From Nostoc sp. T09 (GTDB lineage Bacteria; Cyanobacteriota; Cyanobacteriia; Cyanobacteriales; Nostocaceae), in the NCBI RefSeq assembly GCF_002154695.1, contig NZ_MTAV01000014.1, positions 43,880-75,879 on the forward strand: a stretch of 32,000 nt of DNA. The letters run 5' to 3'. A program made the position numbers and the translations under genes. The notes beneath the pieces are model-generated. The model did no database searches and was not told where the DNA came from. It saw nothing but the letters and a program-made list of their open reading frames with translations. Shown here piece after piece: positions 7,937 through 27,374 of the stretch (the first letter of the stretch is position 1; each line of letters begins with the position of its first letter).

Positions 7937-7938
7937 TT

Positions 7939-9381: not shown

Positions 9382-11198
9382 TGACTCAACAGATATCTAA
9401 TACAATTTCTATTCATCCTACTTTATATGGACAATTAGAAGTAGATTGGAATAAAGAATATCAAGGTGAATTTATTTGCCCCAATTGTCAGAAAACCAAT
9501 CTGAAGAAAACTTCCTATAAAGAAAATTCAATATGTAAACTTAGATTTATTTGTAATACCTGCAATAAACGGATCTCTCTGACTTGTCTAGTTCCTGCCT
9601 TTATTTACAAATACCGCTCTGATATAGAATGTCCCAACCCACTTTGTACTCAATTAGGACATGATGGGCAAAAAGGATGGATATATACAATAAGAAATAT
9701 ATATGAACAGTGTAAATGTCGCTATTGCGGTGTTGGCTTTGAGCCTCAATCAACTGCCGCATCAAGCTGGGTTAATAGGACAACGGAAGGTCAATTATTA
9801 CCTTTTTGTTTTGAGGATGACATTTGGTATTTAAGACATTTCTACGATAATCCTTTTCCGCAATCAATTAGTTTTCAAAACATATCGCCGCAATGGTATC
9901 TATTAGAAGTTAAAAAATATATTCAATATTTACTCAAATCTAGAGTGTATTCTTCACCATCAGGAGTTAGACATACTCTAACAAATTTAAAGCAATTTGG
10001 AAAAATTCTAGACACTTATAAAATAAAACAAACTGCTGATATCAGTCGCGAAGCTGTACTCAGATTTTTAGATAATTACAAAAATTGCGATAACAAAACA
10101 ATCAATCATAAATTAAGCTACATAAAATCTTTTTTTGAATGGTTAGAACTTGATGCATCACACCTAATTCGTAGCCGTGATTACCTTAAAGAATCAAAAA
10201 ATGATGCTGACTGGTTGGATGAAGTAACGCGCACATCTATTAAAGAACATTTGTCGAAAATTCCTGCACCTATTGCTCGCCATTACCTGGTACAGGAGTA
10301 CACTGCTGCTCGTCCAGGAGATATTTGCCAATTAATTTTTGATTGCTTAGTAGAGGAAAATAGCAAATGGTATATCAAATTCTATCAACATAAAACTAAG
10401 CGTTGGCATCAAGTACCTGCTACCCGTGAAATTAGGCAATTAATTGAGGAACAACAACAATGGATAAGACAAGAAATTGGTCTAGAATATTCATATTTAT
10501 TTTGTCATTTCAGGAATATCAGGATCAAAAATTACCCTACTTTTACTACTATGAAGCCTTTGCCAATACCACCTCCGTTAACTATAAATGATAATAGGAT
10601 GGTAGCCATTATTCGTTTACTGATAGAAAAAGAAGACATCCGTGATGCTAATGGGCAGAGACCCCACTTCACAGGTAAAATCACTCGCCATAACAGGTTA
10701 CAAGAAGTACGAGTAAAACATGGTATTGAAGCTGCTCAACTTTATGCTGACCATGTTAGAAGTACTACTACTTTTCAAAACTATACACCTCCTACTAGAG
10801 AACAAGTAGCAGCAGTAGACTTGCCTTTTCAGGAACTGTTAATGAACCTGGATAACAAGTTCCTCCCTTGGCAATCTTTGCCAGAAAGCCTACTCAACAA
10901 CCCTAAAGCACACGAACTCGATCTCGAAATTGCACCACGCTTAGTGGTCTATGGACACTGTGCCCTCGACCCGAAAACGCCCTGTCCTGTTAATCTTTAC
11001 CCCAAATGCTATGGCTGTTCCAGTTTTCGCCCTAGCACTGGTAAATTACCTCTCTATGAACGTCAATATAACGGAGAACAACAAAGACTAACTGAAGCAG
11101 AACAAGCTGGTGCAGAATTAGCAAAAGAAGAAGCCAAAGCCACCATCGAGGCGATGGATAAATGGCTACCAGAACTAAGAAATTTAGCACATGGCTAA
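9381..11198 (+). CDS. Large tyrosine recombinase, third of three, with N-terminal zinc-ribbon-like Cys pairs
   Basis: The start overlaps the upstream stop (TAATG). N-terminal Cys pairs are CPNCQK...CNTCNK and CPNPLC...CRYCG. The catalytic-domain candidates are TAARPGDICQL (Arg), KITRHNR (K-x-x-R-H) and ADHVRSTTTFQNY (His...Tyr). There is a C-terminal Cys cluster CALDPKTPCPVNLYPKCYGC. Confidence 0.7.
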   Translation: MTQQISNTISIHPTLYGQLEVDWNKEYQGEFICPNCQKTNLKKTSYKENSICKLRFICNTCNKRISLTCLVPAFIYKYRSDIECPNPLCTQLGHDGQKGWIYTIRNIYEQCKCRYCGVGFEPQSTAASSWVNRTTEGQLLPFCFEDDIWYLRHFYDNPFPQSISFQNISPQWYLLEVKKYIQYLLKSRVYSSPSGVRHTLTNLKQFGKILDTYKIKQTADISREAVLRFLDNYKNCDNKTINHKLSYIKSFFEWLELDASHLIRSRDYLKESKNDADWLDEVTRTSIKEHLSKIPAPIARHYLVQEYTAARPGDICQLIFDCLVEENSKWYIKFYQHKTKRWHQVPATREIRQLIEEQQQWIRQEIGLEYSYLFCHFRNIRIKNYPTFTTMKPLPIPPPLTINDNRMVAIIRLLIEKEDIRDANGQRPHFTGKITRHNRLQEVRVKHGIEAAQLYADHVRSTTTFQNYTPPTREQVAAVDLPFQELLMNLDNKFLPWQSLPESLLNNPKAHELDLEIAPRLVVYGHCALDPKTPCPVNLYPKCYGCSSFRPSTGKLPLYERQYNGEQQRLTEAEQAGAELAKEEAKATIEAMDKWLPELRNLAHG

Positions 11199-12072
11199 AA
11201 AACATAATCGCGATAAACAAGCTGAAGTTCTGCGTCGTACTCAAGCTCAAAGAAAGGAACAAAAAAAAGAACAAGTATTAAAAGCTATTAAAGTAATACT
11301 TGATCAAAAACAGCCATTGACATTTGCAAAGATTGCTAATGTTTCTGGCTGTTCTATTTCTTATCTCTATAAATGGGATGAGATTAAGGCATATATCCAC
11401 GAACTTCAACAGGAAAAGGAGACTAAACTAAATCCCTTAGAAGAAAAAGACCCAAGACCCCATAGCCTTAAAACTCTACATGAAGTTGCTAGGCAAAGAA
11501 TTAGAGAACTGGAAGCGGAGATTAGGGAACTCAAACACCAGAATGAAAAACTCAGAGGTCATGTCGCAGAAATCTATGAACTTAAAGATGAGTGCGATCG
11601 CCTACGATCGCAGTTACGAGAGAAAGCTTCTGCTGATTCATCGACAAAGATAATTTCCTTAAGAATAAATAAACCTGAGACAAGTTCCTCTACACCTGAT
11701 ATACCTAAACCCAGTGAAGTTCATACTGCTGATATTCAACTAGAAGACTCGGATATCTTTCAATTAATTAACGAAATGGGGATTAAGATGAATTCAAAAC
11801 TAAAGCAAGAAATAGCAAGTCGTGAATATCATAAAGTTAAGTTATCAATTGAAGCTTTTCAAGAGTATCGTAGTAAAACTGATATAGAGAATCCTGCTGC
11901 TTGCTTACTAACCATGATACGTGATGAAGCAAAGCCTAATATCCCCGAAGGATCGACACTTAAACCATCAAGTAAATCTTCAGTTGCTATGCATAATAAT
12001 CAAAAAAAATTAATTTCTCACGATAAGCTCAAACAACTTAGCAAGTTATTTAACGAAAAGAATGAAGAGTAA
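11191..12072 (+). CDS. HTH plus coiled-coil accessory protein of the recombinase module, in the position of ginD/tnpC
   Basis: It overlaps the upstream gene by 8 nt and the downstream dcm by 11 nt. Features are a basic N-terminus, a probable HTH (LTFAKIANVSGCSISYLYKW) and a heptad-rich stretch (IRELEAEIRELKHQNEKLRGHVAEIYELKDECDRLRSQLRE). The function is inferred from position only. Confidence 0.45.
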   Translation: MAKKHNRDKQAEVLRRTQAQRKEQKKEQVLKAIKVILDQKQPLTFAKIANVSGCSISYLYKWDEIKAYIHELQQEKETKLNPLEEKDPRPHSLKTLHEVARQRIRELEAEIRELKHQNEKLRGHVAEIYELKDECDRLRSQLREKASADSSTKIISLRINKPETSSSTPDIPKPSEVHTADIQLEDSDIFQLINEMGIKMNSKLKQEIASREYHKVKLSIEAFQEYRSKTDIENPAACLLTMIRDEAKPNIPEGSTLKPSSKSSVAMHNNQKKLISHDKLKQLSKLFNEKNEE

Positions 12073-13339
12073 GCTAAAAAGACCAATAGCAATAGATCTA
12101 TTTGCTGGTGCGGGAGGGCTAAGTTTAGGATTTGAGCAAGCTGGATTTGATGTAAAAGCTGCTGTTGAAATCGATCCAGTTCATGCTGCTGTTCATAAGT
12201 TTAATTTTCCTTATTGCGTTGTATTACCTTGTTCGATCACTGAGTTATCAGGGAAAGATATTCGAGAAAGAAGTGGAATTGGCAACCAAAATATAGAAAT
12301 TATTATTTCTGGGTCTCCCTGCCAAGGTTACTCCTATATGGGTCGTCGAGTATTAGACGATCCAAGAAATTTTTTAGTAAAAGATTTTATAAGATTAGTC
12401 TTAGAGCTAAAGCCTTCTTATTTCGTTTTTGAAAACGTCAAAGGTTTTACAGTTAGTAAATATCAATCATTTTTAGATGAATTAATTGAAACTTTCAGTA
12501 ATAATAATTATCAAATCTGTTTACCCTGGAAAGTCCTTAATGCTGCTTATTATGGAATACCACAAAAGAGAGAAAGACTATTTCTAATTGGTGCAAAGAA
12601 AGGTTGTGTCTTGCCTGAGTATCCTGCTCCATGTAGCCAACCACTTTTTGCAAAGTTAGCCAATCCTATCTTACCTCCTACTCCATCTTGTTGGGATGCC
12701 CTCAAAGATTTACCAGAAGCAGAAGAATTTGAGGAATTACTATATAGTGATTGCGTAGAAACGGGACAATGGAGCAATCCCAGCCACTATGGGCGAGAAA
12801 TGAGATGTTTAGATGATAGTAGCTGGCATTTTGGCTATAGGAGAAATTGGAATCCCTTTCTTTTGACTTCTAGCATAAGAACTAATCATTCGCCAATCTC
12901 ACGAGCTAGATTTCATGCCACAGTACAGGGAAAGAAAGAACCTGTTTCTCACTTCTTCAAATTGGCACAAGATGGCATAGCTAATACCTTAAGGGCAGGA
13001 ACTGATGCTGCTCATGGCTCACACACATCTCCAAGACCTATTCATTACAGTAGTCCTCGCTGTATTACTGTACGAGAAATGGCACGATTACATGGGTTTC
13101 CTGATTGGTTTCGTTTTCACATCACAAAATGGCATGGTGCGAGACAGGTAGGAAATTCAGTTCCGCCACCATTGGCGAGAGCAATTGGTACAGAAATTAT
13201 GAAATGTTTGGGAATGAATCCAACTACTCCTGAAGATGTTTTGGATCTGGGAGATCCCAAACTTTTATCAATGACTATGAAACAAGCTGCAAATTATTGG
13301 CAGCTTACTATACCAACTAAAGATATTATCAATGTCTAA
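12062..13339 (+). CDS. dcm: DNA (cytosine-5)-methyltransferase, intact
   Basis: All key m5C-MTase motifs are present: I DLFAGAGGLSLGF, IV GSPCQGYS, VI ENVKG, VIII QKRERLFLIG, IX TVREMARLHGFPDWF and X GNSVPPPLA. Confidence 0.9.
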   Translation: MKSKLKRPIAIDLFAGAGGLSLGFEQAGFDVKAAVEIDPVHAAVHKFNFPYCVVLPCSITELSGKDIRERSGIGNQNIEIIISGSPCQGYSYMGRRVLDDPRNFLVKDFIRLVLELKPSYFVFENVKGFTVSKYQSFLDELIETFSNNNYQICLPWKVLNAAYYGIPQKRERLFLIGAKKGCVLPEYPAPCSQPLFAKLANPILPPTPSCWDALKDLPEAEEFEELLYSDCVETGQWSNPSHYGREMRCLDDSSWHFGYRRNWNPFLLTSSIRTNHSPISRARFHATVQGKKEPVSHFFKLAQDGIANTLRAGTDAAHGSHTSPRPIHYSSPRCITVREMARLHGFPDWFRFHITKWHGARQVGNSVPPPLARAIGTEIMKCLGMNPTTPEDVLDLGDPKLLSMTMKQAANYWQLTIPTKDIINV

Positions 13340-14645
13340 GAGTAACCAGTTTTTAGGAAACTTAGAAGCAGAAGAAGCCATACTAGGGGGTATCTTACTT
13401 GACCCTAATGCTATTAGCATAGTTGCTAATATTCTTCCTGTAGAGGCTTTTGGTACTCATGGTAATCAACAAATTTATAAGGCAGCTTTAGAGTTATATC
13501 AAAATAATAAGCAAACAGATTTAATGACTATTTCTACTTGGTTGTCAGACCATAAAGTATTAGAAAAAATAGGAGGTAATAATAAACTATCTCAACTTCT
13601 TACCCGTACTGTATCAGCAGTAAATATAGACCATTATGCTGCCCTAGTACTGGATAAATACCAACGCCGTCAATTAGTAGCAGTAGGACATACCATAGTT
13701 GATTTAGGTTGCGATACTAGCATTGAATTAGAACAAGTATTTGAGCAATCTGAACAAAAACTATTTAATCTCACAACTAACAAGAAAGCTAGATTTCAAC
13801 CCAAACCTATTCATGAGTGTTTAGCTAATGTCCTGAATAAGATAGAGCAAGGTTCATCTCCTGCTTATCCTACGGGTTTAGTAGACTTAGATGCTCTCAT
13901 TGGTGGCTTAATTAAACAAGACTTGATTGTGGTTGCTGCTAGACCATCTATGGGTAAAAGCTGGTTCGGCTGTTATCTGACTAATTATATTGCAAGCAGT
14001 ATTCAGAAGCCAGTATTGTTCTTTAGTGCAGAGATGTCTGAGGAACAACTGACTAAAAGATTCCTCTCTATGCACACAGGTATTGATTCCCAAAGACTCA
14101 TGCACAATCAAATTTATGAGGAGGAATATGATTCTTTAGTACAAGGTTTATCTAATCTAGGTAAACTGCCCATTATCATTGATGATACTCCAGCAAGTGA
14201 ATTAACTCCCACTAAAATTCGTTCTGCACTTCGTAGAATAGAATCTGAAAGAGGAGAGTTAGGATTAGTAGTATTAGACTACATTCAAAAGCTTGGAGAT
14301 AGAGCAGCAGGTAATAGAGCGCAAGCAATTGGTAAATATTGTGGTGCTTGTAAGGATATTGCTAAAACCTTCAATGTCCCATTTGTAGTTCTGGCTCAAA
14401 TTAATCGTGGTGTAGAAGGTCAAAGTAATAAACGTCCTTCTATGGCTGATATAAAGGACTCTGGCGATATTGAACAGGACATGGACTTAGGACTACTACT
14501 TTATCGAGATGAATATTACAACTCGAATACTAGCGATCAAGGAATTATGGAGATAATAGTCGCTAAAAATAGAAATGGTATAACAGATACTTGTAAGGTG
14601 GTGTTTGACCCTAGTATTGGTAACTTCTCTGATTACAAAAATTAG
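13332..14645 (+). CDS. DnaB-family replicative DNA helicase, element-borne paralogue
   Basis: It has a DnaB N-terminal domain (EAEEAILGGILLDP), Walker A ARPSMGKSWF, Walker B LVVLDYIQ and LAQINRGVE...DIKDSGDIEQDMD. It overlaps the dcm stop by 8 nt. No intein is present. Confidence 0.85.
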   Translation: MSKSNQFLGNLEAEEAILGGILLDPNAISIVANILPVEAFGTHGNQQIYKAALELYQNNKQTDLMTISTWLSDHKVLEKIGGNNKLSQLLTRTVSAVNIDHYAALVLDKYQRRQLVAVGHTIVDLGCDTSIELEQVFEQSEQKLFNLTTNKKARFQPKPIHECLANVLNKIEQGSSPAYPTGLVDLDALIGGLIKQDLIVVAARPSMGKSWFGCYLTNYIASSIQKPVLFFSAEMSEEQLTKRFLSMHTGIDSQRLMHNQIYEEEYDSLVQGLSNLGKLPIIIDDTPASELTPTKIRSALRRIESERGELGLVVLDYIQKLGDRAAGNRAQAIGKYCGACKDIAKTFNVPFVVLAQINRGVEGQSNKRPSMADIKDSGDIEQDMDLGLLLYRDEYYNSNTSDQGIMEIIVAKNRNGITDTCKVVFDPSIGNFSDYKN

Positions 14646-14784: not shown

Positions 14785-17700
14785 TTAGCTAGCATCTTGT
14801 GTCAACCTATGATATACCTTCTCTAGTATCCAGTCCTTCACTGCTCCGCCAAATTCTTTGTCATCTATAATTTTCGCAAATATATCTTGGTTTAAATCCA
14901 TGCGCTCAATCAGTTTTGTGAGAAAAATATCCTCAAATCCATATTTGAAGTTCTGAATTGAGTTGCTTTTAGCTTGTTGTGATAGTACTTCATCTTGAAC
15001 TAATGCTTCCTCAATTTGGCTAAAAAAGTATTTATCTGCTTCCGTAAAATCGGTACGAAATCTTTGGTTGAGGATGTCTATAATTTCTGAGAGTTTAGCT
15101 TGTGTCTCTTTTTCTCTAGGTATGCCAGCTTCAGTTATTGGTTGCAGATGTGATTCTGCATTTTTTTCTAAGACAATTCTACCTTCTCTGATTTTTTGTA
15201 ATCGATAATATTCCAGTGCAACTTCATCAGTGAGTTTAAAAACTTCGCTTTGGCTGCGTTTTGGTAATTTAGTTTGCAGTAGACGAGCAAAAGCATAGAA
15301 TTTTTCTAGTTCTTCATCTGCAAAGGGCATAATCTGGGACAAGAAAGCATATAGCCTGATGAATGTAGTTAAACTATTTTTAAATTCATCTTGTTGTTCT
15401 TCGCCTAATGCCTTAAAACGGTCAACAGCAGGATCAACTAGGGAATGAAGCCTACTGTGATCTTGCTTGTTTGTCTTTTCCTGAGATTTAAAAAATACCT
15501 GCGTGAAAGCATCTACATCGCTATTCCAAATGATTTGGTAGCTATCTAGCCTATTTTTTAAGTCATATAGTCGGTTAGGATCTGTGGTTGATGCTAGTGT
15601 AGTTTGTTCATAATAAAGCTGGAAAGCATCAATAATTTCTTGCTCTGAATTAGCAAAATCTAAAACAAAGGTATCTTCTTTGCCTGAAAAAGTGCGATTC
15701 AAGCGAGATAAAGTTTGTACGGCTTTGACTCCAGACAGTTTTTTATCCACGTACATGGTGTGTAACAATGGCTGGTCAAAACCAGTTTGATACTTGTCTG
15801 CGACAATCAAGAGTTGATATTCACCAGACTCAAACTTTTCCGGTAATTCCCGTTCACCAAAACCGTTGAGATCATATTCAGTGTATTTAATAGCTGTTTC
15901 TCGATCAGTGAAACTGGTAAAAGCTACCAATGCTTTGATATCAACATAACCTTGCTTTCTTAAATAGTTATCAAATTCTTCTTTATAGCGCACTACGTGA
16001 GGACGAGAAGCAGTAACTACCATTGCCTTTGCTTTTCCACCAATTTTGTGCATGACGCATTGGCGAAAATGTTCGATGATCACTTCAGTTTTTTGAGCTA
16101 AGTTATGTGGATGCAGAGATAAAAACCTGGCTATAGCCCGACTTGCTTTCTTCGCATTAATTTTAGGGTCATCTGCGATCGCTTTAGAAATTTGGAAATA
16201 AGTTTTATAGGTTGTGTAATTCTGCAACACATCCATAATGAACCCTTCTTCAATTGCTTGGCGCATGGAATACAAATGAAAGGGTTCTGGAAGACCTTGG
16301 GCATTAATTTGACCAAATTCTTCCAAGGTTTTTTGCTTTGGTGTGGCAGTGAAAGCAAAGAAGCTCAAGTTCGGTTGTTTACCACGAATATGCATCTCTT
16401 TGCGGATATTGTCTTCAATATCTTCTTCTTCTGTCATGCTTTCCTCTTTAGCTGAACGGCTGAGGTCATTGACAGAAAGGACTTCTTTCATTTTCTTGGA
16501 TGCTTCGCCACTTTGAGAACTATGGGCTTCATCCACTATTAAAGCGTAATTGCGTTTTGGTAGTTGGGCAATGTTGTTTTTTTCTAAGATTTCCCGAATC
16601 TTATCCAAGACGAAAGGAAATTTTTGCAAGGTAGTAATAACAATATTAGTTCCAGAAACCAAAGCTTCGGCTAGTTGGGTAGAGTTTTTATCAATTTTTT
16701 GCACAACACCTTGCTTATGCTCAAATTGATAAATTGTGTCTTGTAGCTGCTGATCTAGTACCCTCCTATCAGTGATAACGATGACTAAATCAAAAACTCG
16801 CTCATTTTGGTTGTTGTATAAACTAGCAAGTTGATATGCTAACCAGGCAATGGAGTTACTTTTGCCACTACCAGCAGAATGCTGAATTAGGTAATCATGT
16901 CCTGGTCCCTTAACTTTTGCATCTGCGGTCAACTTGCGAACCACATCTAATTGGTGAAATCGAGGGAATATAAGGGTTTCTTTTTTGGCGGATTTACCAT
17001 TGAGTTTAATGTTTTGCTGCTCAAGGTGCAAAAAACGACCCACGATGTCTAGCCAACTGTCTTTCGCCCATATATCTTCCCAGAGATAGGCGGTTTTGTA
17101 GCCGTTGGGGTTGGGAGGGTTGCCTGCACCTTTGTTGAAGCCTTTGTTGAATGGTAGAAAGCGGGTATTACTACCTTCAATGCGGGTAGTCATCCAGACT
17201 TCATCCGGGTCTACAGCAAAATGTACCAAAGTACGACGCTTAAATTGAAATAATAAATCTCGGTTATCCCGGTCTTGGATATACTGGCGCTTGGCTTTAT
17301 CTACATCTTGTCTGGTAAATTGGTTTTTTAGTTCTACTGTGGCGACTGGCAAACCATTGATACTTAACAGTAGATCTATTGAGTTTCCATGTTGATCACT
17401 GTAGTGTACCTGACGAGTTACTGTGAGGATATTTTGGTTATAAAGTACTAGAGTATCGGGGTTTAGTCCACTTGCGGGTTTGAAGAATGCTAATTTGAAG
17501 CGTACACTGTAGTCAATGATACCATATCGCAGTACATCTAACATCCCACGATTATTCAATTCTTGATACAGCCTTTGCATGAACTTAGGTTCAACCTCAG
17601 CACCATGAATGTCTGTCAGATGTTGCCATGCTTCCATCTGAGAAGTTTGAATAAACCTCAGTAGAGTGGCTTGATCGAGTGCTAGTTCTTGAATAAAATT

Positions 17701-17796
17701 GCTAGCATACCCTTCTTCATAGCCACCATTACTTAATAAGCTGGCAATGATTGCATTTTCAAAAGCTTTTTCGGTTGTCTGAACAGTTGCAGTCAT
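14785..17796 (-). CDS. hsdR: Type I restriction enzyme R subunit (HsdR)
   Basis: The protein is 1003 aa. SF2 helicase motifs are QHSAGSGKSNS (I), IVDEAHSSQ (II, DEAH), FTATP (III) and QTLSRLNR (VI). There is an N-terminal nuclease-type region. The start overlaps the upstream stop (ATGA). Confidence 0.9.
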   Translation of the reverse strand: MTATVQTTEKAFENAIIASLLSNGGYEEGYASNFIQELALDQATLLRFIQTSQMEAWQHLTDIHGAEVEPKFMQRLYQELNNRGMLDVLRYGIIDYSVRFKLAFFKPASGLNPDTLVLYNQNILTVTRQVHYSDQHGNSIDLLLSINGLPVATVELKNQFTRQDVDKAKRQYIQDRDNRDLLFQFKRRTLVHFAVDPDEVWMTTRIEGSNTRFLPFNKGFNKGAGNPPNPNGYKTAYLWEDIWAKDSWLDIVGRFLHLEQQNIKLNGKSAKKETLIFPRFHQLDVVRKLTADAKVKGPGHDYLIQHSAGSGKSNSIAWLAYQLASLYNNQNERVFDLVIVITDRRVLDQQLQDTIYQFEHKQGVVQKIDKNSTQLAEALVSGTNIVITTLQKFPFVLDKIREILEKNNIAQLPKRNYALIVDEAHSSQSGEASKKMKEVLSVNDLSRSAKEESMTEEEDIEDNIRKEMHIRGKQPNLSFFAFTATPKQKTLEEFGQINAQGLPEPFHLYSMRQAIEEGFIMDVLQNYTTYKTYFQISKAIADDPKINAKKASRAIARFLSLHPHNLAQKTEVIIEHFRQCVMHKIGGKAKAMVVTASRPHVVRYKEEFDNYLRKQGYVDIKALVAFTSFTDRETAIKYTEYDLNGFGERELPEKFESGEYQLLIVADKYQTGFDQPLLHTMYVDKKLSGVKAVQTLSRLNRTFSGKEDTFVLDFANSEQEIIDAFQLYYEQTTLASTTDPNRLYDLKNRLDSYQIIWNSDVDAFTQVFFKSQEKTNKQDHSRLHSLVDPAVDRFKALGEEQQDEFKNSLTTFIRLYAFLSQIMPFADEELEKFYAFARLLQTKLPKRSQSEVFKLTDEVALEYYRLQKIREGRIVLEKNAESHLQPITEAGIPREKETQAKLSEIIDILNQRFRTDFTEADKYFFSQIEEALVQDEVLSQQAKSNSIQNFKYGFEDIFLTKLIERMDLNQDIFAKIIDDKEFGGAVKDWILEKVYHRLTQDAS

Positions 17797-18785
17797 AGTT
17801 GTGCCTCGGTCTGTTCAATTATTTTTACAGTATTTAAGAATTGCTCATAGGCAACCTGACGGAGGATTTCTTGTAATTTGCCCCTTTGAAATTCATTTAA
17901 ATCTAACTTGAGATTATCCTCTTCGTTGTAGCAAAGGTTGACAAAAGTGATTTCATCGGTATGTAAAAATTTTGCTACATCTGGTTTTTTATCAGGCAGA
18001 TTGTTAATTAATTCGCAGGTATCTGGGTCAAAATACAGATGCACTAAATTTTGAATGCCAACAACAGGGCGACCTTGATAGTGGGGCTTGCCATCACTAG
18101 ATTGCCACAGAACACCAAAGACTTTGCAATTTCCAGAACGGTAGACTTTCCCGATTTGTGGTGCACCTCTAATACTAGATGAGGGTCGTGAAGTATCCCG
18201 AATTTTTCTGATGAGTAGTTTTAAGGGTTGCATATCTAGCTTGATATCTGTCATCCCCACAACTTCATAAAGTTCTAAAATCAAATCGTCACTTTCAATA
18301 TCTCCAATAAAGCAGACTGGCTCAGAATCATCTAGATAGCAACGTTCGGCTGTAAATACTTCTACTTTTAGATCATAGAACAGTCGCCAAACATAAAACT
18401 CACTGGTTTGCCAGCGCCAACCCCCGAATATAAATTGAGCTTCACTTCTCGCTTCATCGTAGTTTGGGCGGTTAATTTCACTGAGATCAATGGCTTGAGC
18501 AAGATCAGTAAAGAGAGCTTTTGTGTGGTTGAGGATGTCTAATAAATCTGTCTGCGGATTTTTCAGAGCAGGAGAAGTATTGATTGTCTGAATTAGGTTG
18601 AGAATCATGGGGTATGCACGATTGGTTTCTCCTGCAAAACAGATGAAACAGTCTCTGCGGGGCAATTCAAAAAGTTTTACTCCCGCTTCCCATCGTTCAC
18701 CCGCAGAAAGACAACTATCGGTTGCAAATACTAATTCTTGATCGCCTGTCGGTGTATGACGTACCCAGGCTGCACATAAAGTCAT
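17793..18785 (-). CDS. Uncharacterised 330-aa protein embedded in the type I R-M operon. The N-terminal ~185 aa resemble the HslV/proteasome-beta Ntn-hydrolase fold, and the C-terminal ~145 aa are unassigned.
   Basis: ATGA overlaps link it to both hsdS (18782-18785) and hsdR (17793-17796). The pattern MT-LCAAWV...LVFATDSCLSAGE...GVKLFEL...FICFAGETNRAY...VCFIGDIESDD parallels E. coli HslV MTTIVSV...VVIAGDGQAT...VKKVRRL...IAGFAGGTADAF...IAIGSGGPYA, recalled from memory. The gene call is solid and the fold call is inference. Confidence 0.55.
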   Translation of the reverse strand: MTLCAAWVRHTPTGDQELVFATDSCLSAGERWEAGVKLFELPRRDCFICFAGETNRAYPMILNLIQTINTSPALKNPQTDLLDILNHTKALFTDLAQAIDLSEINRPNYDEARSEAQFIFGGWRWQTSEFYVWRLFYDLKVEVFTAERCYLDDSEPVCFIGDIESDDLILELYEVVGMTDIKLDMQPLKLLIRKIRDTSRPSSSIRGAPQIGKVYRSGNCKVFGVLWQSSDGKPHYQGRPVVGIQNLVHLYFDPDTCELINNLPDKKPDVAKFLHTDEITFVNLCYNEEDNLKLDLNEFQRGKLQEILRQVAYEQFLNTVKIIEQTEAQL

Positions 18786-20104
18786 GCAGTAACCTCCTCC
18801 CTAACATCAATTTTGCCTGTTACTGCTGCTGTGATAAGGGTCTGGCGATATTCTTGCAGTTTTTCTATAGTTTCCTTGTTTTTAGTAATAATTTTGTCAA
18901 TCATTACTGTTGACTTTTGAATAAATGAAACAATATCCTCTTGTTCTTTATAAGGTGGTTCAACAATTGGTAAGGTTTGCAAGATAGGAACGCTTAAATT
19001 AACTTGTGCTGATCCCCAACCTTCAACTGTAAAGAATGACTGAGCAAATGAGGAGTTAATATAATAACTATAAAAGAGGGGAAATTGCTGAGGATTAAGT
19101 GTAGCTATTAGTAAAGTAAAACATTGAGCATGATTTAGTTCTTCAGGAACTACAGCAGTCATGCCAGCGTTTGCACCTGTGCGAACAGTCAAAATATCTC
19201 CTTTACGAAGATACTTAGAGCGATTTTTTTCTGCAAACCACTCCTCAATATAAAGAATATCGCTGAAATCAATATAATTTTTTTTTACATTACCAGAGCG
19301 AACGATAGGAACTCCTTGGAGTGTATAAGCGTGAGTTGCTGCTTCTGCAATTCCGACTTCAATACGTGATGTAACACGTTTAAAAATTTTTACTCGCCAA
19401 TGTTCAGGAACTTCACCAATCCCAGAAATACCAGAATCTTTCATCGGAACATTTGGGTTTAGCCCTTTGGTTACAGCTTGGTTAATCAGAGCATTGCGTT
19501 TTTCTTCGAGTAGTTCGATGAGACGTTGTTTTTTGTCAATAAGGGTAGCGATCGCAACAGTTTTGCGATCAAGGAAAGAGGCGATTGCACTTTGCTGCTC
19601 AAGAGGAAGCACAGGAATAGAAATTGAACCAATCTCAGAGGCATTAGTTGCTGGGTAACTCACTCCAATAGAACGAGCACATATTTCATCAACTACAAAA
19701 CTAGAACGCATCCAGTAATATAGGTAACGAGGATTTAGTATATTGCCTATTGGAGAAAGAACAGCAAATCCTGTTGAGGCAATTAGGCTGGGATTATTCT
19801 CTTCAACATAGCTAATGGCTTTCAGGTATGTTCTAACAGTAGAAACAATCGTGTCTCCTTGAATCACTTTTCGTCTTGCTCTTGATGGTGAATTCTCGAA
19901 AACGAATTCACTCATTTGTAAGATTTTTCCAGTAGAATCAACGCTTCCAATATCTATGTATTTTATGGGAAAATCGGACGGAGTTGATTCCGGTAGAGTT
20001 TTTGCATTAATTTGAGTTACATACTTCAATGGCATTAAGGTAACTGATTTTTCTAAGTCTCCAAGCCATAGAAGATTTCGGTCACAGCTAACTAAGGCTT
20101 TCAT
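18782..20104 (-). CDS. hsdS: Type I R-M specificity subunit (HsdS)
   Basis: The protein is 440 aa with two variable target-recognition halves. These are separated and followed by the conserved helical spacers LIELLEEKRNALINQAVTKGL and IEKLQEYRQTLITAAVTGKIDV. Confidence 0.85.
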   Translation of the reverse strand: MKALVSCDRNLLWLGDLEKSVTLMPLKYVTQINAKTLPESTPSDFPIKYIDIGSVDSTGKILQMSEFVFENSPSRARRKVIQGDTIVSTVRTYLKAISYVEENNPSLIASTGFAVLSPIGNILNPRYLYYWMRSSFVVDEICARSIGVSYPATNASEIGSISIPVLPLEQQSAIASFLDRKTVAIATLIDKKQRLIELLEEKRNALINQAVTKGLNPNVPMKDSGISGIGEVPEHWRVKIFKRVTSRIEVGIAEAATHAYTLQGVPIVRSGNVKKNYIDFSDILYIEEWFAEKNRSKYLRKGDILTVRTGANAGMTAVVPEELNHAQCFTLLIATLNPQQFPLFYSYYINSSFAQSFFTVEGWGSAQVNLSVPILQTLPIVEPPYKEQEDIVSFIQKSTVMIDKIITKNKETIEKLQEYRQTLITAAVTGKIDVREEVTA

Positions 20105-20106
20105 GG

Positions 20107-22188
20107 TTAATTTATAACCTCCTTCAGCATTCCCTGAATTTCATCTTCTAAATCTTTAATTTCCTGTTCAATTTTCTCCAACGGTCTAGGTGGTACATAT
20201 TCATAAAAATGCCGTGTAAACGGTATTTCATAACCAATCTTCGTCTTACTCCCATCTACCCATGCATCTGGCACATGGGGTAAAACTTCGCGCTTCATAT
20301 ACTCATCAATATCTTCTTTCAATGGCACATTTTCGTAATCTCTAAGGTCTGAGTCTGGTTCTGGGTTGCCATCTTTATCAATACAGATATCAGCTGTTTC
20401 ATCTCGTTCAGCTAAAGCATTTATAATTGCTTTCTTCACCGGAGCTGCTACTTTCACATCAGCCACTTTCAATGCAGCCGTCAAATCTGTTTCAAACTCA
20501 TCCCGCTTTTTGTATAGAATATCTCCTAAATTACGCAATGCTTCTTTAATAGTCTCCTGTAACTGCTTCCCTTCTTCAATTTCTCGTAAAGCAACCCCAC
20601 CGCGTTTTTTAGACTCAGCTAAATTTATAAAGGCAGTTTCAGTTTCTAGCTTGGCAATACGTTCATCACTCACCTGAAAATTTAACCTTAGCGGACGTTC
20701 TACTGTGATGCGCCAATAACCAAAGTCTTCATTATCAAAAATTTTGCTAACAATAATATCTTGTTCTTTACCATCTACCTCAAGTTTGCGTTTAACATAC
20801 TGATGAAACTCGCCCTCGCCGTAAATGCAGGTAATTTCTGCTATTTGATTGGGCTTGCCATCTTCACCATCCCCAATTTCATTACGCTTATTTCCCAAAC
20901 TACGGGTCATTTTTTTGTAATAATGGATGCCATTAACAAGCTGTATTTTACCTTTACGTTTTGGAACTTTACAATTGGTTACAATCCAAATATATGTATA
21001 AATTCCAGTGTTATAAAACAATTGGTCTGGCATAGCAACAATCGCTTCTAGCATATCGTTTTCGATAAGCCATTTGCGAATTTCACTTTCGCCACTACCA
21101 GCACTGCCTGAAAATAGCGGTGAGCCGTTGAATACAATGGCAATTCGAGAACCACCATTATCAAGCTTCATCTTAGAAATCATGTGTTGTAGGAACAAGA
21201 AAGAACCATCAGAAATCCTCGGTAATCCGGCTCCAAAACGTCCATCAAATCCTTTCTTCTCATACTCATTTTTGACATATGTTTGCACCTTCTTCCATTC
21301 CACACCAAAGGGCGGATTAGACAACATATAATCAAATGTTTCGTGTGCCAAACCATCATTAGTAAAAGTATTTCCAAACTTAATATTGCTGATATCTTGA
21401 CCTTTAATCAACATATCAGATTTACAAATTGCGTAAGATTCTGGGTTGAGTTCTTGACCAAAAACCACAGGCTTAGAATATTCGTTAAGTTCTTTAATGT
21501 ACTCTTCTGCTACAGACAGCATCCCACCAGTTCCACAAGCAGGATCGTAGATAGTTTTGACAATACCTTTTTGGATTAGAATATCTTTATCATTGATAAA
21601 CAGAAGGTTAACCATTAGTCGGATAACTTCACGCGGTGTAAAGTGTTCCCCCGCAGTTTCATTAGATAATTCTGAAAATTTGCGAATTAACTCCTCAAAA
21701 ACATATCCCATCTCCGTGCTGTTTGCTTCTTTTGGATGAAGATCAACTTCAGCAAAATTTTTAACAATTAAAAATAGCAGATTAGCTTCATCTAAACGAT
21801 TAATTTGGTCATTGAAGTTAAAATATTCGATGATTTCTCTGCCTGCGGCAGAGAAGCCATTAATAAAGTTTTTGAGATTAGCGGCTAAATTATCTGGATC
21901 TGCTTTGAGTTTTTGAAAGGTAAACTGGCTAATATTGTGAAAAGGTACGCCAGCTTTTTGGTTTAGTAAAGGCTCAGGATTCTTCAGATTCTTCATAGAC
22001 TTTACTTTCGTTTCGTAAAAGTCCATCACAGATACTTTTGTTGGCTCTAAAATGCAGTCTAATCGACGCAACACTGTGAATGGCAGTATGACTTTGCCAT
22101 AGTCAGCTTGCTTATAATCACCGCGTAAAAGTTCAGCAATACTCCAAATAAAACCAACAAGCTTTCTTACTTTTTCCGTTCGCGCCAT
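20107..22188 (-). CDS. hsdM: Type I R-M N6-adenine DNA methyltransferase subunit (HsdM), long form
   Basis: It has the SAM-binding motif DPACGTGGML, the catalytic motif LSNPPFG and an HsdM N-terminal domain. An acidic, helical C-terminal extension of about 200 aa follows. The stop lies 2 nt before the hsdS start. Confidence 0.9.
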   Translation of the reverse strand: MARTEKVRKLVGFIWSIAELLRGDYKQADYGKVILPFTVLRRLDCILEPTKVSVMDFYETKVKSMKNLKNPEPLLNQKAGVPFHNISQFTFQKLKADPDNLAANLKNFINGFSAAGREIIEYFNFNDQINRLDEANLLFLIVKNFAEVDLHPKEANSTEMGYVFEELIRKFSELSNETAGEHFTPREVIRLMVNLLFINDKDILIQKGIVKTIYDPACGTGGMLSVAEEYIKELNEYSKPVVFGQELNPESYAICKSDMLIKGQDISNIKFGNTFTNDGLAHETFDYMLSNPPFGVEWKKVQTYVKNEYEKKGFDGRFGAGLPRISDGSFLFLQHMISKMKLDNGGSRIAIVFNGSPLFSGSAGSGESEIRKWLIENDMLEAIVAMPDQLFYNTGIYTYIWIVTNCKVPKRKGKIQLVNGIHYYKKMTRSLGNKRNEIGDGEDGKPNQIAEITCIYGEGEFHQYVKRKLEVDGKEQDIIVSKIFDNEDFGYWRITVERPLRLNFQVSDERIAKLETETAFINLAESKKRGGVALREIEEGKQLQETIKEALRNLGDILYKKRDEFETDLTAALKVADVKVAAPVKKAIINALAERDETADICIDKDGNPEPDSDLRDYENVPLKEDIDEYMKREVLPHVPDAWVDGSKTKIGYEIPFTRHFYEYVPPRPLEKIEQEIKDLEDEIQGMLKEVIN

Positions 22189-22351: not shown

Positions 22352-22957
22352 TTAAGTCCAATCTCTTCTAATACGAGTTACCGCCTGGTTTAACCCTTCA
22401 CTATGAATCCAACCGACAAACCCGCCGTAAATCATTCTGTCATTGACATCGCCTAAAAAAACATGGTCAACACCAACGGGGTTTTTCCAAGTTCTTACCA
22501 CTGTCCCATCTCTCAGCTTCATGATGGGAATTGACCACTGAAAATCTCTGTGGTTTGCAGGAGTCATGCCAGGGACATTCTCTAAAATAGCCATTACCTC
22601 TTGAGTGACATTTTTGGTGTAAGTTTTTACCGTAGCTTTGAGCCGTTCTTTAAGGTTTCTGTCAAACAATAGTAAAAAATCAATTTCTTTAAAAAGCTTG
22701 GTATGTGATTGAGTCTGCCGTCTGTGGCTATAAATACCTGTTAAGAAACCTTCCAGAATTACTTTTGCCAAAGCATGGCTAATCAAACCTATTAGTCCTA
22801 AGGCAGCAATTCCACCCACCATCCCTGCTGGACCTCCCAGGAATGCTAAAGCTGTGGTGATAGCAGCGGCATCTTTTAAACCTGTAGTCGCCATTAATAC
22901 CGCCAAGATAATACAAGGTAATCCGATAGCAGCAAGTTTTTTGACGACTTCATCCAT
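22352..22957 (-). CDS. Small membrane protein with a glycine-zipper-like N-terminal double TM segment and a soluble C-terminal domain
   Basis: The N-terminus reads IGLPCIILAVLMATTGL...ALAFLGGPAGMVGGIAALGLIGLI. I recognised no family. Confidence 0.55.
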   Translation of the reverse strand: MDEVVKKLAAIGLPCIILAVLMATTGLKDAAAITTALAFLGGPAGMVGGIAALGLIGLISHALAKVILEGFLTGIYSHRRQTQSHTKLFKEIDFLLLFDRNLKERLKATVKTYTKNVTQEVMAILENVPGMTPANHRDFQWSIPIMKLRDGTVVRTWKNPVGVDHVFLGDVNDRMIYGGFVGWIHSEGLNQAVTRIRRDWT

Positions 22958-24368: not shown

Positions 24369-25004
24369 ATGAAAACGCAAATTTTGTTAAGCCTTGCTTG
24401 TTCTTTGTCTCTGTTGGGTGCTGTTACAGTACCAGCTAGTGCTCAACCTACTGTGCAGCCTCAGCCCCAAGCAGTAAGTCAAGATCTAACTATTCCTCAA
24501 GATACAGCCATTATCGTTTCATTTCCCGCATCTGTGACTGTAGATGTTGGGCAAAAGAAAGATTATCCTTTGACACTTCCTTTAGCTAGTGCAATTAAAG
24601 ATGCTCAAGGTAATGTTGTAGCACCGGAAAATACTCCCGTCACCATTGTTCTTAAACCTACTGATGGGGGCGCTAAAATTGTCGCACAATCGCTGGTAAT
24701 TAATGGTCGAATTGTCTCAATTAAAGCATCGAGTCAGATGATTCCTGGCACTACTATCACCCAAAAGCGAGCTAATGATAAAGCTGTAGAAAACGGTTCT
24801 GTTTGGGGTAGACTAACCGGAAGTACCTTGGGCTTTTTGAGCAATGGAGATCCTGAACAGTTTGACCGAGGTGCAATGCTAGGGAGCGCCATTGGATTAG
24901 TCTCAGGCTTGCGTTCGGCAGAAAATACTCGTATTGTCCAAATTGCCCAAAGCAGTGTTTATGTTTTGTCGCTTGAAGCTCCTATCCAATTGTCTGCTCG
25001 CTAA
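24369..25004 (+). CDS. Secreted hypothetical protein
   Basis: The signal peptide is MKTQILLSLACSLSLLGAVTVPASA-QP. No family was recognised. Confidence 0.6.
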   Translation: MKTQILLSLACSLSLLGAVTVPASAQPTVQPQPQAVSQDLTIPQDTAIIVSFPASVTVDVGQKKDYPLTLPLASAIKDAQGNVVAPENTPVTIVLKPTDGGAKIVAQSLVINGRIVSIKASSQMIPGTTITQKRANDKAVENGSVWGRLTGSTLGFLSNGDPEQFDRGAMLGSAIGLVSGLRSAENTRIVQIAQSSVYVLSLEAPIQLSAR

Positions 25005-25998
25005 TTTCATCTTCAGTAGAAAAAGCAGATTCCTTAGGATGCAGTATTGTTAAATGAAAGCCATGTCGAGTTTCGGTTTTCAGATATCGCTCCTGTAATG
25101 GTTGCCACTGCTGCCACAATTGGTAACGATTTTCTGCTAATAATTTAGTCAGCCCATGCAGATGAGTATGCATGTCTGACTTAAAGACATCCTCTAGCCA
25201 CTCAGTCAATACCACACCATCATGCATCGCACCCAAGATGTCTTGGATACTTTTCACATCTGCAATATAAGCTGCGTAAAACTCGTTGTATAAATCAGAA
25301 AATAAATCCATTTGATAGCGTACGCGTTTGGCTTGTTTGCGTAAACTATGAAGTGTTTCACCTTTATTAGCTAATTCTTGTTCTACTTTTTCTGCTTCCC
25401 AGCCTTTGCGGATTTTTAACTCCGATTCTCCAACTTCGGTTCCCACTAGCCAACCGGGATGTAACAGGAATTGACTCACTTCTGGTAACAGTAAATCTGG
25501 TAGAACTTGCTGAATGGTAATAGATGCTAAATCTTTATAGCTTGGCTTTTCTAACCACTCTTCCATTGACTGTTTTAAAGACTTGTAAGATTCATCTTTT
25601 AATGTTGTCTGTACTGTAGCTAGCGCGTGTTCACGTTGTTTAGCTAAAGCATCAAAGGCTGTATGTAAATATTTCTGTTCTTTATTAGATAAACGCGGTT
25701 TATAATCTTTTTCTATGGTTTGTTTGAGTACATCTAAATCTCGGAGATTCCCAAGCCGACGAGCAATTTTACCGATATTTTTATCACTGATCGGCTTCGA
25801 TAAATCTAAGGCTATGACAAACCTACTGACAGAAGTCCGTAGCCGACGCATCCCTACTCGCATTTGATGCAATGCTTCTGGATCTTCATCTTTCTTAACT
25901 GATTTTTCCCACTTTAATGTTTTCTTATAATGTTTTTGAATCGCCTGGTAAGCGTAGTCTCCGAGCGTTTGCGCTGTTGTATTTGTATCTAATTTCAT
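24982..25998 (-). CDS. CHAD domain-containing protein
   Basis: EALHQMRVGMRRLRTSVSRF and LHSLRKQAKRVRYQMDLF are the repeated conserved His/Arg helices typical of CHAD domains. Confidence 0.75.
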   Translation of the reverse strand: MKLDTNTTAQTLGDYAYQAIQKHYKKTLKWEKSVKKDEDPEALHQMRVGMRRLRTSVSRFVIALDLSKPISDKNIGKIARRLGNLRDLDVLKQTIEKDYKPRLSNKEQKYLHTAFDALAKQREHALATVQTTLKDESYKSLKQSMEEWLEKPSYKDLASITIQQVLPDLLLPEVSQFLLHPGWLVGTEVGESELKIRKGWEAEKVEQELANKGETLHSLRKQAKRVRYQMDLFSDLYNEFYAAYIADVKSIQDILGAMHDGVVLTEWLEDVFKSDMHTHLHGLTKLLAENRYQLWQQWQPLQERYLKTETRHGFHLTILHPKESAFSTEDEISEQTIG

Positions 25999-26306: not shown

Positions 26307-27374
26307 ATGTATAACAGTTATTCAATAGCCCAAGTCTTTCTGACGTTTACAAAGAGTTTTCAAAAACACAGAAAAGACCTTTCGGCATTACTGCTCACCT
26401 CACACAAGTATCTCTGGTTGGGTTCGGATGAAACATCAACCATTGAAAGGCTCTCTTTAATAGATCCTAACAACTTTGCAGACCACCAGCACTTTCGAGT
26501 GGCAGAATTTATTAGTTTACCTGCACCAGAAACGGATGAGATTGATATTGAAGGGTTTGCTTATGCAGATTATTACTTATGGTTCGTAGGTTCCCACAGC
26601 TACAAGCGTAAAAAACCTAAATCTAATAAGACCGATGTAAAAAATATTCAAAGGCTAGCAACTGTTATCACAGAACCTAACCGTTACATTCTAGGAAGAA
26701 TTCCCTTGATAGAGGGAAATTTATTTTCATCTTGCCTACACCCGCACAATCCAGATGTGCAGTTAACAGCCGCTAAACTAGAGTTGGCTAACCAGAGTAA
26801 TTTGCTGATGACTGCCTTAGTAGATGACCCCCATTTGGGCTGGGCGATTAAAGCAGCAATTCCAGGGAAAGACAATGGCTTTGATATCGAAGGTATAAGT
26901 ATTTATCAAAACCGGATTTTTTTAGGTTTACGAGGCCCAGTATTGCGGGGTTGGGCTGTAATTCTAGAAATAGAATTAATTGATTCTTCCCCAGGATTGA
27001 TGACACTACAACCAATTGGGGAAGAAAAGAAAGGGTATAAAAAGCATTTTCTCTGGTTGAATGGTTTGGGAATTCGAGATTTATTGCTAGATGGTGAAGA
27101 CTTGTTAATTTTAGCCGGGCCGACGATGGACTTAGATGGGCCAGTGCAAGTTTATCGTTGGAAAAATGGCGTTAATTCAGCAGAAAATCTTCTTAGTTAC
27201 CCAGAGCTTGTACAAGACATTCCCTATGGGAATAGAGAAGATCATGCTGAGGGTATGACCTTATTTAATGATGTAGTTGGGAAACCTTCATTGTTAGTAG
27301 TTTATGACTCTCCAGCCAAGAATCGGCTGGTAGGCGATAGCACAGTCATAGCTGATGTGTTCAACTTGAGCTAG
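26307..27374 (+). CDS. Hypothetical protein, DUF3616-like (tentative)
   Basis: The repeated motifs DIEGFAY...LWFVGSHS and GFDIEGISIYQNRIFLGLRGPVLRGWA recall the DUF3616 family. The start codon is uncertain. Confidence 0.45.
   Translation: MYNSYSIAQVFLTFTKSFQKHRKDLSALLLTSHKYLWLGSDETSTIERLSLIDPNNFADHQHFRVAEFISLPAPETDEIDIEGFAYADYYLWFVGSHSYKRKKPKSNKTDVKNIQRLATVITEPNRYILGRIPLIEGNLFSSCLHPHNPDVQLTAAKLELANQSNLLMTALVDDPHLGWAIKAAIPGKDNGFDIEGISIYQNRIFLGLRGPVLRGWAVILEIELIDSSPGLMTLQPIGEEKKGYKKHFLWLNGLGIRDLLLDGEDLLILAGPTMDLDGPVQVYRWKNGVNSAENLLSYPELVQDIPYGNREDHAEGMTLFNDVVGKPSLLVVYDSPAKNRLVGDSTVIADVFNLS

Follow-up and report, generated by a model that had tools for sequence, protein, structure and literature searches.

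A 32,000-nucleotide stretch of the Nostoc sp. T09 genome (NCBI RefSeq GCF_002154695.1, contig NZ_MTAV01000014.1, positions 43,880 to 75,879 of the forward strand; hereafter the window) encodes a type I restriction-modification (R-M) operon in which an additional gene, here called X, lies between hsdS and hsdR. Modelling of its structure predicts with high confidence that X is a proteasome-beta/HslV-like hydrolase using an N-terminal threonine as nucleophile (Ntn hydrolase), and comparative analysis indicates that the 330-amino-acid form of X is an obligate resident of the hsdS-hsdR slot within a single lineage of a divergent family of type I R-M systems. The role of X is most likely phage defence. 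Our preferred reading, drawn by analogy and held tentatively (probability about 0.4), is that X may be an R-M-dependent latent protease that provides a PrrC-like second line of defence.

The identity of X was not apparent from its sequence. No match was found in Pfam, NCBIfam, PADLOC or PHROGs, nor in the PDB by sequence or profile; Pfam searches with 30 relatives of X gave no match even at E<=10, and its 357 close homologs are annotated as 'hypothetical'. Across 30 aligned R-M-linked members the M-T-L-C start, T22-D23-S24, K37, G52 and other blocks are invariant, and an AlphaFold2 model built from this alignment reached a predicted local distance difference test score (pLDDT) of 84.5 and a predicted template modelling score (pTM) of 0.80. 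The order of strands and helices in the model is that of a proteasome subunit (four-layer alpha-beta-beta-alpha), followed by an extra C-terminal part. When the model was compared with the PDB using Foldseek, 1082 matches were obtained at E<=1e-3, with target template modelling scores (TM-scores) of up to 0.76. The best 50 of these 1082 were all 20S proteasome alpha or beta subunits, mycobacterial proteasome or Anbu, and the alignments to proteasome chains extend over about 225-245 columns. The proteasome-like fold of X was also found in a few uncharacterised phage proteins.

The putative active site is strongly conserved. D23, K37 and G52 of X are the equivalents of proteasome Asp17, Lys33 and Gly47, and Thr2 is the equivalent of Thr1. 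Conservation was counted over 354 members of the X superfamily that cover the N-terminus, 341 of which start exactly at profile position 1. Among the latter, 335 begin with (M/V/L)T and 4 with MS, while D23 is present in 354 of 354 sequences, S24 and K37 in 353 each and G52 in 352. A weak hhalign alignment of X with E. coli HslV (probability 5.7%) paired D23 with Asp17, K37 with Lys33 and the FAG motifs of the two proteins. Methionine aminopeptidase removes an initiator methionine that precedes threonine; X begins Met-Thr, and loss of the methionine would therefore be enough to free the threonine nucleophile, no propeptide being involved. Judged from these residues, X is predicted to be catalytically competent. 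The segment GAPQIGKV (residues 207-214) was considered as a P-loop (Walker A motif) and rejected, as G207, Q210 and K213 belong to the conserved core of the fold family; homology of X to NTPases or PrrC was rejected as well, since no library match was found by sequence or profile.

A scan of one genome per species yielded 109 relatives of X, and 80 of these loci were examined. In 77 of the 80, hsdM, hsdS, X and hsdR follow one another on one strand, with HsdM and HsdR close kin of those in the window; the remaining three loci are truncated or decayed. The loci span at least 10 phyla, including Cyanobacteria, Bacteroidota, Deinococcota, Desulfobacterota, Gammaproteobacteria, Acidobacteriota, Nitrospirota and Chloroflexota, and the same gene order was found on two 'viral' (provirus-like) contigs. 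The distance from hsdS to X is -4 nucleotides in 27 of the 77 loci and between -8 and +5 nucleotides in 62, and that from X to hsdR is -4 nucleotides in 33 and at most +11 nucleotides in 63, showing start/stop coupling in excess of chance. Some X operons hold extra genes with X still in place (GmrSD, SIR2, RhuM, Schlafen/AlbA_2 and an AAA_13 ATPase). The AAA_13 ATPase is an additional passenger in a single X-containing locus (L025), and AAA_13 is presumably the Pfam family that holds PrrC and RloC.

Within the window the operon is complete and compact (Table 1). The hsdM stop codon TAA is separated from the hsdS ATG by CC, a gap of 2 nucleotides, and 5' of each downstream start in the operon a purine-rich ribosome-binding stretch lies inside the preceding gene. 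Promoter-like and terminator-like matches within the operon did not rise above shuffled expectation. According to Pfam and PADLOC, the type I make-up is intact: HsdM (N6_Mtase, HsdM_N), a two-stretch HsdS, and HsdR with an N-terminal nuclease and a superfamily 2 (SF2) motor. The hsdM product matches the PADLOC model MTase_I PDLC03029 over its full length (3e-289). A first-pass annotation, made from the letters of the window alone, had placed the four open reading frames (ORFs) and their junctions at exactly these coordinates, with the 2-nucleotide gap between hsdM and hsdS and ATGA at both borders of X. It had also proposed that X is translationally coupled to the R-M genes, which is borne out by start/stop overlaps on both sides and by spacing kept among the 77 related loci, and that the layout mirrors the prr order M-S-passenger-R, the order recovered in 77 of the 80 related loci. 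Its view that X has no NTPase and differs as a passenger from PrrC agrees with our failure to find any AAA/ABC or PrrC-type match in Pfam, NCBIfam or PADLOC. The accompanying idea of a 'new effector' needs correction: the passenger is a different one, but it is not unclassifiable, being predicted as a proteasome/HslV-like Ntn hydrolase.

Two observations concern the immediate surroundings of X in related operons. In several Bacteroidota operons a recurrent ORF of about 108-116 amino acids without a Pfam match lies between hsdS and X (L010 7670-7999, L011 7671-7997, L026, L035, L038, L039, L052, L065 and L079); it may be a further small component or adaptor. A 495-amino-acid Nostoc sp. protein annotated as HsdM (P0027) is an in-frame fusion of HsdM from residue 1 to about 263 with X from about residue 103 onward. 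We considered it as a natural M-X fusion and rejected this, because it is a deletion remnant that has lost the 3' half of hsdM, hsdS and the catalytic N-terminus of X.

The R-M system that hosts X belongs to a divergent type I family, which is not type IC. HsdM and HsdR score below the NCBIfam hsdM and hsdR cut-offs, similarity to EcoKI and EcoR124I is weak, and HsdR shows only local (helicase) similarity to EcoR124I HsdR. A metagenome scan anchored on HsdR returned 80 loci at 45-64% identity, of which 59 show both hsdS and hsdR. In 25 of these 59 hsdS abuts hsdR and the slot is empty, in 33 more than 300 nucleotides of extra gene or genes intervene, and X was found in only 2. Among the slot genes from metagenomes are M78 (IrrE-like) peptidases, which come with a small partner, as well as Fic, GmrSD, AAA_15/21 ATPases and an FRG protein. 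Plasmid-borne relatives have AAA+HNH (Septu-like), DUF4268 or GIY-YIG in the slot, or leave it empty. A neighbour-joining tree was built from 151 HsdR proteins; none of its 58 deep-branching loci has X, and the X operons form one crown group with about nine X-less loci nested within it. The gap between hsdS and hsdR is thus a general passenger slot, and X one long-lived occupant rather than a core subunit. The notion that X belongs to the core of the R-M family as a whole, as its fourth subunit, was accordingly rejected, given that 2 of 59 loci carry X and plasmid relatives hold other genes or nothing. The first-pass annotation had further argued that X is not a later insertion; in evolutionary terms this is wrong, because X is absent from 58 of 58 deeper-branching HsdR relatives, the slot is shared by many alternative genes, and X types recombine with breakpoints at the borders described below.

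The content of the slot in operons without X shows some recurring patterns. A protein of about 380 amino acids is found repeatedly; the two that were scanned (L105 5341-6489 and L123 3408-4562) are M78 (IrrE-like) peptidases, and the ORFs of this kind in L130, L151, L166 and L170 were matched to them by size only. An ORF of about 165 amino acids follows in L123, L130, L151 and L170. The slot of L138 encodes a BSP-like peptidase, so that different peptidase classes recur at this position. An ORF of about 195-214 amino acids occupies the slot of X-less operons of the crown group (L092 6374-6976, L098 6352-6981, L114, L146 and L161), and one alike in size lies between X and hsdR in L010 (9008-9613). 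The two of these that were scanned, from L092 and L010, gave no Pfam match.

X itself occurs as discrete types that are exchanged between operons. It falls into at least 8 clusters that are about 40-48% identical to each other, and there are many pairs of operons whose HsdM and HsdR are 90-98% identical while X is only 41-48% identical. For example, the window and L014 share 91% identity in HsdM, 91% in HsdR and 41% in X. In such pairs the DNA is homologous up to the hsdM/hsdS border and becomes so again about 15 nucleotides into hsdR. The hsdS gene is hypervariable between near-identical operons, and in the pair L029 and L011 hsdS is alike and X is not. Identity of X correlates poorly with that of HsdR (Spearman 0.43, compared with 0.84 for HsdM and HsdR). 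A mirror-tree test for co-evolution of X with HsdR gave a weak signal, because the X types are shuffled. The weak tracking together with the border breakpoints indicates that X is exchanged by recombination as a cassette, independently of hsdS, and the X types are older than the M/R backbones that now carry them. Within types X is under purifying selection comparable to that on hsdM and hsdR: the ratio of nonsynonymous to synonymous substitution rates (dN/dS) ranges from 0.08 to 0.12 for X, and between the window and L001 it is 0.082 for X, 0.076 for hsdM and 0.099 for hsdR.

The 330-amino-acid X differs from its wider superfamily by its C-terminal extension (about 75 residues, with a long helix at residues 298-329), which is modelled with pLDDT 79-94 across residues 250-320 and 64 over the last ten residues. 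A profile search of 1.84 billion representative sequences identified 696 clusters. About 20 of these contain proteins of approximately 330 amino acids that cover the whole profile, while the bulk are 260-300 amino acids long and end near profile position 262. The extension is missing from these shorter relatives and is confined to the R-M-embedded clade. A docking module common to the extension and the other slot passengers was looked for and rejected, no matching ORF being present in the examined loci, passengers included. Taken together, the context in 77 of 80 loci, the clade-specific extension and a purifying selection like that on hsdM and hsdR lend comparative support to a putative dependence of X on R-M.

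The short relatives are cargo of mobile DNA. They reside on plasmids and in islands beside integrases, in a Vibrio array of small same-strand genes that is integron-like, and as a moron between the gpW and portal genes of lambda-like prophages. On viral contigs (L184 6001-6867, L186 2983-3867, L188 5794-6885 and L185 2336-3424) the short-clade gene lies in prophage head modules in the order terminase large subunit, X homolog, lambda-family portal, S49 protease, and in L184 and L186 a small ORF occupies the gpW position after the terminase large subunit. The gene directly 5' of the short relatives varies: in three of the inspected loci it encodes PIN_12 (twice) or Mrr_cat (once), and elsewhere a Ser/Thr kinase, a TPR protein or two dynamin-like GTPases. 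The last arrangement was seen on the conjugative IncFIB plasmid NZ_CP054968.1 of Klebsiella pneumoniae (L081 3963-8834), where a short X follows two dynamin-like GTPase genes, one of them annotated as LeoA/HP0731 family; this cluster may be a variant of a dynamin-type defence system that includes an Ntn peptidase. On E. coli chromosomes, a distant X-like gene is located by a tyrosine recombinase near ypjA (L087 9001-9576; 128 of 5426 complete genomes). It is probably truncated or frameshifted, because it is annotated with 191 amino acids while the tblastn match spans about 285 codons.

How might a protease serve a restriction system? The 330-amino-acid clade is, like PrrC, found essentially only inside type I operons, and for this reason we propose a restriction-dependent latent effector. 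X would be made together with HsdM, HsdS and HsdR from one message and would be held latent on or by the restriction complex, most plausibly through the clade-specific C-terminal extension. Perturbation or phage engagement of the complex, for example by an anti-restriction protein, would then activate X, which would cut a host or phage protein and thereby block infection. The at least 8 divergent X types on near-identical M/R backbones could be read as the trace of an arms race over recognition by X or over inhibitors of X. PrrC inside EcoprrI provides a precedent for an embedded effector that depends on restriction (PMC12707154), and protease modules occur in antiviral systems (PMC12799240).

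Several points weigh against this latent-protease reading. Binding of X to HsdM, HsdS or HsdR, its latency and its toxicity are proposals by analogy. Enzymes of the proteasome family usually depend on assembly into rings or on an unfoldase, and the operon encodes no unfoldase; nor does PADLOC include a model for X. Comparison of operons with and without X revealed no discriminating column or indel in HsdR, nor any in the C-terminus of HsdS. Only two columns track X, both in HsdM, and these may be phylogenetic signal: Y122 (window 21823-21825) is present in 100% of 71 HsdM proteins from X operons, 14% of those from crown-group X-less operons and 9% of those from deep-branching X-less operons, and the corresponding values for I247 (window 21448-21450) are 94%, 14% and 6%. 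The pair could be a contact site for X or a mere clade signal, and we regard it as a weak lead. That the same HsdR accepts X types about 40% identical argues against a tightly co-evolved interface, and with X types so diverse any interface with the R-M complex would have to use conserved parts of X. Finally, a gene embedded in a type I operon need not rely on the R-M enzyme for its action, as TgvAB exemplifies (PMC11411939).

The TgvAB precedent leads to a different explanation, namely that X is an autonomous protease directed against phages or mobile genetic elements, which hitch-hikes in the slot for co-expression and co-transfer, in the manner of GmrSD/TgvAB, and is functionally uncoupled from R-M. 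The slot is a general hot-spot: among 59 related operons, other genes fill it in 33 and X in only 2. Exchange of X types takes no account of which M/R backbone carries them, the short relatives occur by themselves on plasmids, in a cassette array and in prophages, and TgvAB, itself embedded in a type I operon, functions unaided (PMC11411939). However, were X autonomous, one would expect to meet it outside R-M operons too, as is the case for GmrSD, whereas the 330-amino-acid clade was seen outside the M-S-X-R arrangement only in truncated or decayed loci; nor does autonomy explain the clade-specific extension, and we consider it unlikely, if deserving of attention. Alternatively, X could be a restriction-alleviation protease that degrades HsdR or another subunit during attack on unmodified host DNA, replacing ClpXP-dependent control. 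ClpXP degrades HsdR against autoimmunity in types IA and IB (PMC12707154), X lies directly 5' of hsdR and overlaps it, and such an activity would make it easier for an R-M system passing between phyla to become established in naive hosts, the operon family being present in at least 10 phyla and adjoining mobile-element genes in the window. Yet 57 of the 59 R-M relatives do without X, 25 of them with nothing in the slot, near-identical HsdR proteins are paired with X types about 40% identical, no feature of HsdR tracks the presence of X, and the short relatives outside R-M are left unexplained. We judge alleviation to be somewhat less likely than autonomy.

The remaining explanations strike us as more improbable still. 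X might degrade anti-restriction proteins of phages or plasmids (Ocr/ArdA-type mimics, Stp-like peptides) and so keep the R-M system working, the X types being inhibitor repertoires. Discrete recombining types under purifying selection within each type fit such arms-race recognition, and exclusivity to R-M operons fits a role useful only alongside R-M; the short relatives, however, occur without any R-M system, and no substrate-binding domain is recognisable in X; we give this an outside chance. Lower again we would place the idea that X cuts and switches on a neighbouring nuclease (HsdR, or PIN_12 and Mrr_cat in the short clade), as in the Hachiman, AVAST and Canu pairs. X does lie directly 3' of a nuclease gene in three inspected short-clade loci (PIN_12 twice, Mrr_cat once), and the order nuclease then protease is that of the described pairs (PMC12799240), but the protease and nuclease classes both differ from those pairs, X-lacking relatives have complete M, S and R genes, and HsdR of X operons has neither an insertion nor a discriminating residue relative to X-lacking operons. 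HsdR as a gated pro-nuclease specific to X operons was rejected on this last ground. It is very improbable that X is catalytically inert and serves the restriction complex as a structural or assembly subunit: inactive proteasome-fold subunits do exist (alpha) and Foldseek matches alpha as well as beta subunits, but the free Met-Thr N-terminus, D23, K37 and G52 are kept in >99% of 354 relatives and most operons of the R-M family lack X.

A wider proposal may be made, which we consider possible though doubtful. X would be the first proteasome-family enzyme shown to act in prokaryotic antiviral immunity, a threonine protease tethered to the type I complex by its extension and firing when the complex is attacked or engaged. 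The superfamily of about 700 clusters would represent a mobile 'Ntn-protease module' that pairs with PIN_12, Mrr-like proteins, a kinase, dynamin-like GTPases and type I R-M, and the recombining types would encode target or trigger specificities.

The coordinates of the operon and of the predicted elements of X are collected in Table 1. Elsewhere in the window, three tandem tyrosine-recombinase genes on the plus strand (6824-7936, 7939-9381 and 9381-11198) are followed on that strand by genes for DUF6262 (11191-12072), a C-5 cytosine DNA methylase (12062-13339) and a DnaB-like helicase (13332-14645). The genes of 6824-14645 overlap or abut and converge on the 3' end of hsdR, and the region resembles a cargo-carrying mobile element of the 'recombinase trio' kind. 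GC content drops from about 0.48 to about 0.35-0.40 at about 6-7 kb of the window, and the R-M operon is therefore probably in or beside acquired DNA. The genes 5' of hsdM have no obvious operon link to it; they lie at 22352-22957 (minus strand), 24369-25004 (plus), 24982-25998 (minus) and 26307-27374 (plus), and their products comprise proteins of 201 and 211 amino acids without a Pfam match, a CHAD-domain protein and a DUF3616 protein.

Table 1. Features of the hsdM-hsdS-X-hsdR operon (window coordinates)
Feature	Position	Strand	Basis
hsdM, type I methyltransferase subunit, 693 amino acids	20107..22188	-	Pfam N6_Mtase 1.7e-56, HsdM_N 1.2e-23
hsdS, specificity subunit, 440 amino acids	18782..20104	-	Pfam Methylase_S in two stretches
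X, predicted proteasome/HslV-like Ntn hydrolase with C-terminal extension, 330 amino acids	17793..18785	-	AlphaFold2 model and Foldseek
Predicted Ntn (proteasome-like) core of X, residues 1-256	18018..18785	-	Model and short-clade coverage
Thr2 codon of X, predicted N-terminal nucleophile after Met removal	18780..18782	-	Superfamily conservation
C-terminal extension of X, residues 257-330	17796..18017	-	
hsdR, restriction/translocase subunit, 1003 amino acids	14785..17796	-	Pfam HSDR_N, SWI2_SNF2, ResIII, T1R_D3; PADLOC REase_I
Strong Shine-Dalgarno-like GGGAGGAGG in the hsdS 3' end, 7 nucleotides 5' of the X start codon	18793..18801	-	Read directly from sequence
hsdS stop / X start overlap, ATGA	18782..18785	-	Read directly from sequence
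X stop / hsdR start overlap, ATGA	17793..17796	-	Read directly from sequence

Type I operons with an embedded second-line gene are already known, PrrC being the classic example. The E. coli prr locus (EcoprrI hsdM-hsdS-prrC-hsdR) has the same order, with a non-R-M gene between hsdS and hsdR; X differs from PrrC in its proteasome-like fold and in lacking an ABC-type NTPase or anticodon-nuclease domain, and its host R-M family is not type IC. Other genes inside such operons are TgvAB/GmrSD, RloF and the PADLOC 'embedded' candidates, and the slot of X likewise accepts GmrSD, SIR2, RhuM, Fic, Septu-like and further genes. Such passengers are also common outside R-M operons and TgvAB works alone (PMC11411939), whereas the 330-amino-acid X was not found outside R-M operons. 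In the Hachiman, AVAST, Lamassu, DRT and Canu pairs (PMC12799240) a protease gene is coupled to a nuclease gene in an immune locus, as with X. Their proteases are trypsin-like or caspases and their nucleases of the metallo-beta-lactamase (MBL) fold, while X is of the Ntn type and the neighbouring nucleases are PD-(D/E)xK (HsdR) or, beside some short relatives, PIN; the gating insertions of the Hachiman, AVAST and Canu nucleases were not found in HsdR. ClpXP in restriction alleviation (types IA/IB) also links a self-compartmentalising type of protease to the control of HsdR, but it is a housekeeping protease encoded elsewhere, whereas X is a product of the operon, is optional in this R-M family and shows variation independent of that of HsdR.

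Literature searches found no proteasome or Ntn enzyme linked to type I R-M, phage defence or any bacterial defence system, nor any earlier description of a proteasome-type Ntn hydrolase that is obligately R-M-embedded in many phyla and occurs as recombining discrete types. X has in common with proteasome beta, HslV, Anbu and BPH the alpha-beta-beta-alpha Ntn fold, the N-terminal threonine and the equivalents of Asp17, Lys33 and Gly47, and differs from them in being undetectable by Pfam or PDB sequence profiles, in its extra C-terminal extension and in having no partner unfoldase gene. Looking forward, the X locus offers an active-site hypothesis (Thr2), a candidate docking element (the extension) and a natural experiment (at least 8 types in near-identical operons), making the function of an orphan protease family directly testable, and it may reveal a new way of backing up or regulating restriction systems. 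Fuchs, Alva and Lupas (2021) described 22 families of 'proteasome-like homologs' with 'no genomic contexts ... suggestive of a specific function' (PMC8665760), and X may be one of these families, e.g. PMI-4, DAH or CPH. Whereas that survey saw no informative context (PMC8665760), X is strictly R-M-embedded, and this strict, phylum-spanning context provides a first functional lead for the family.

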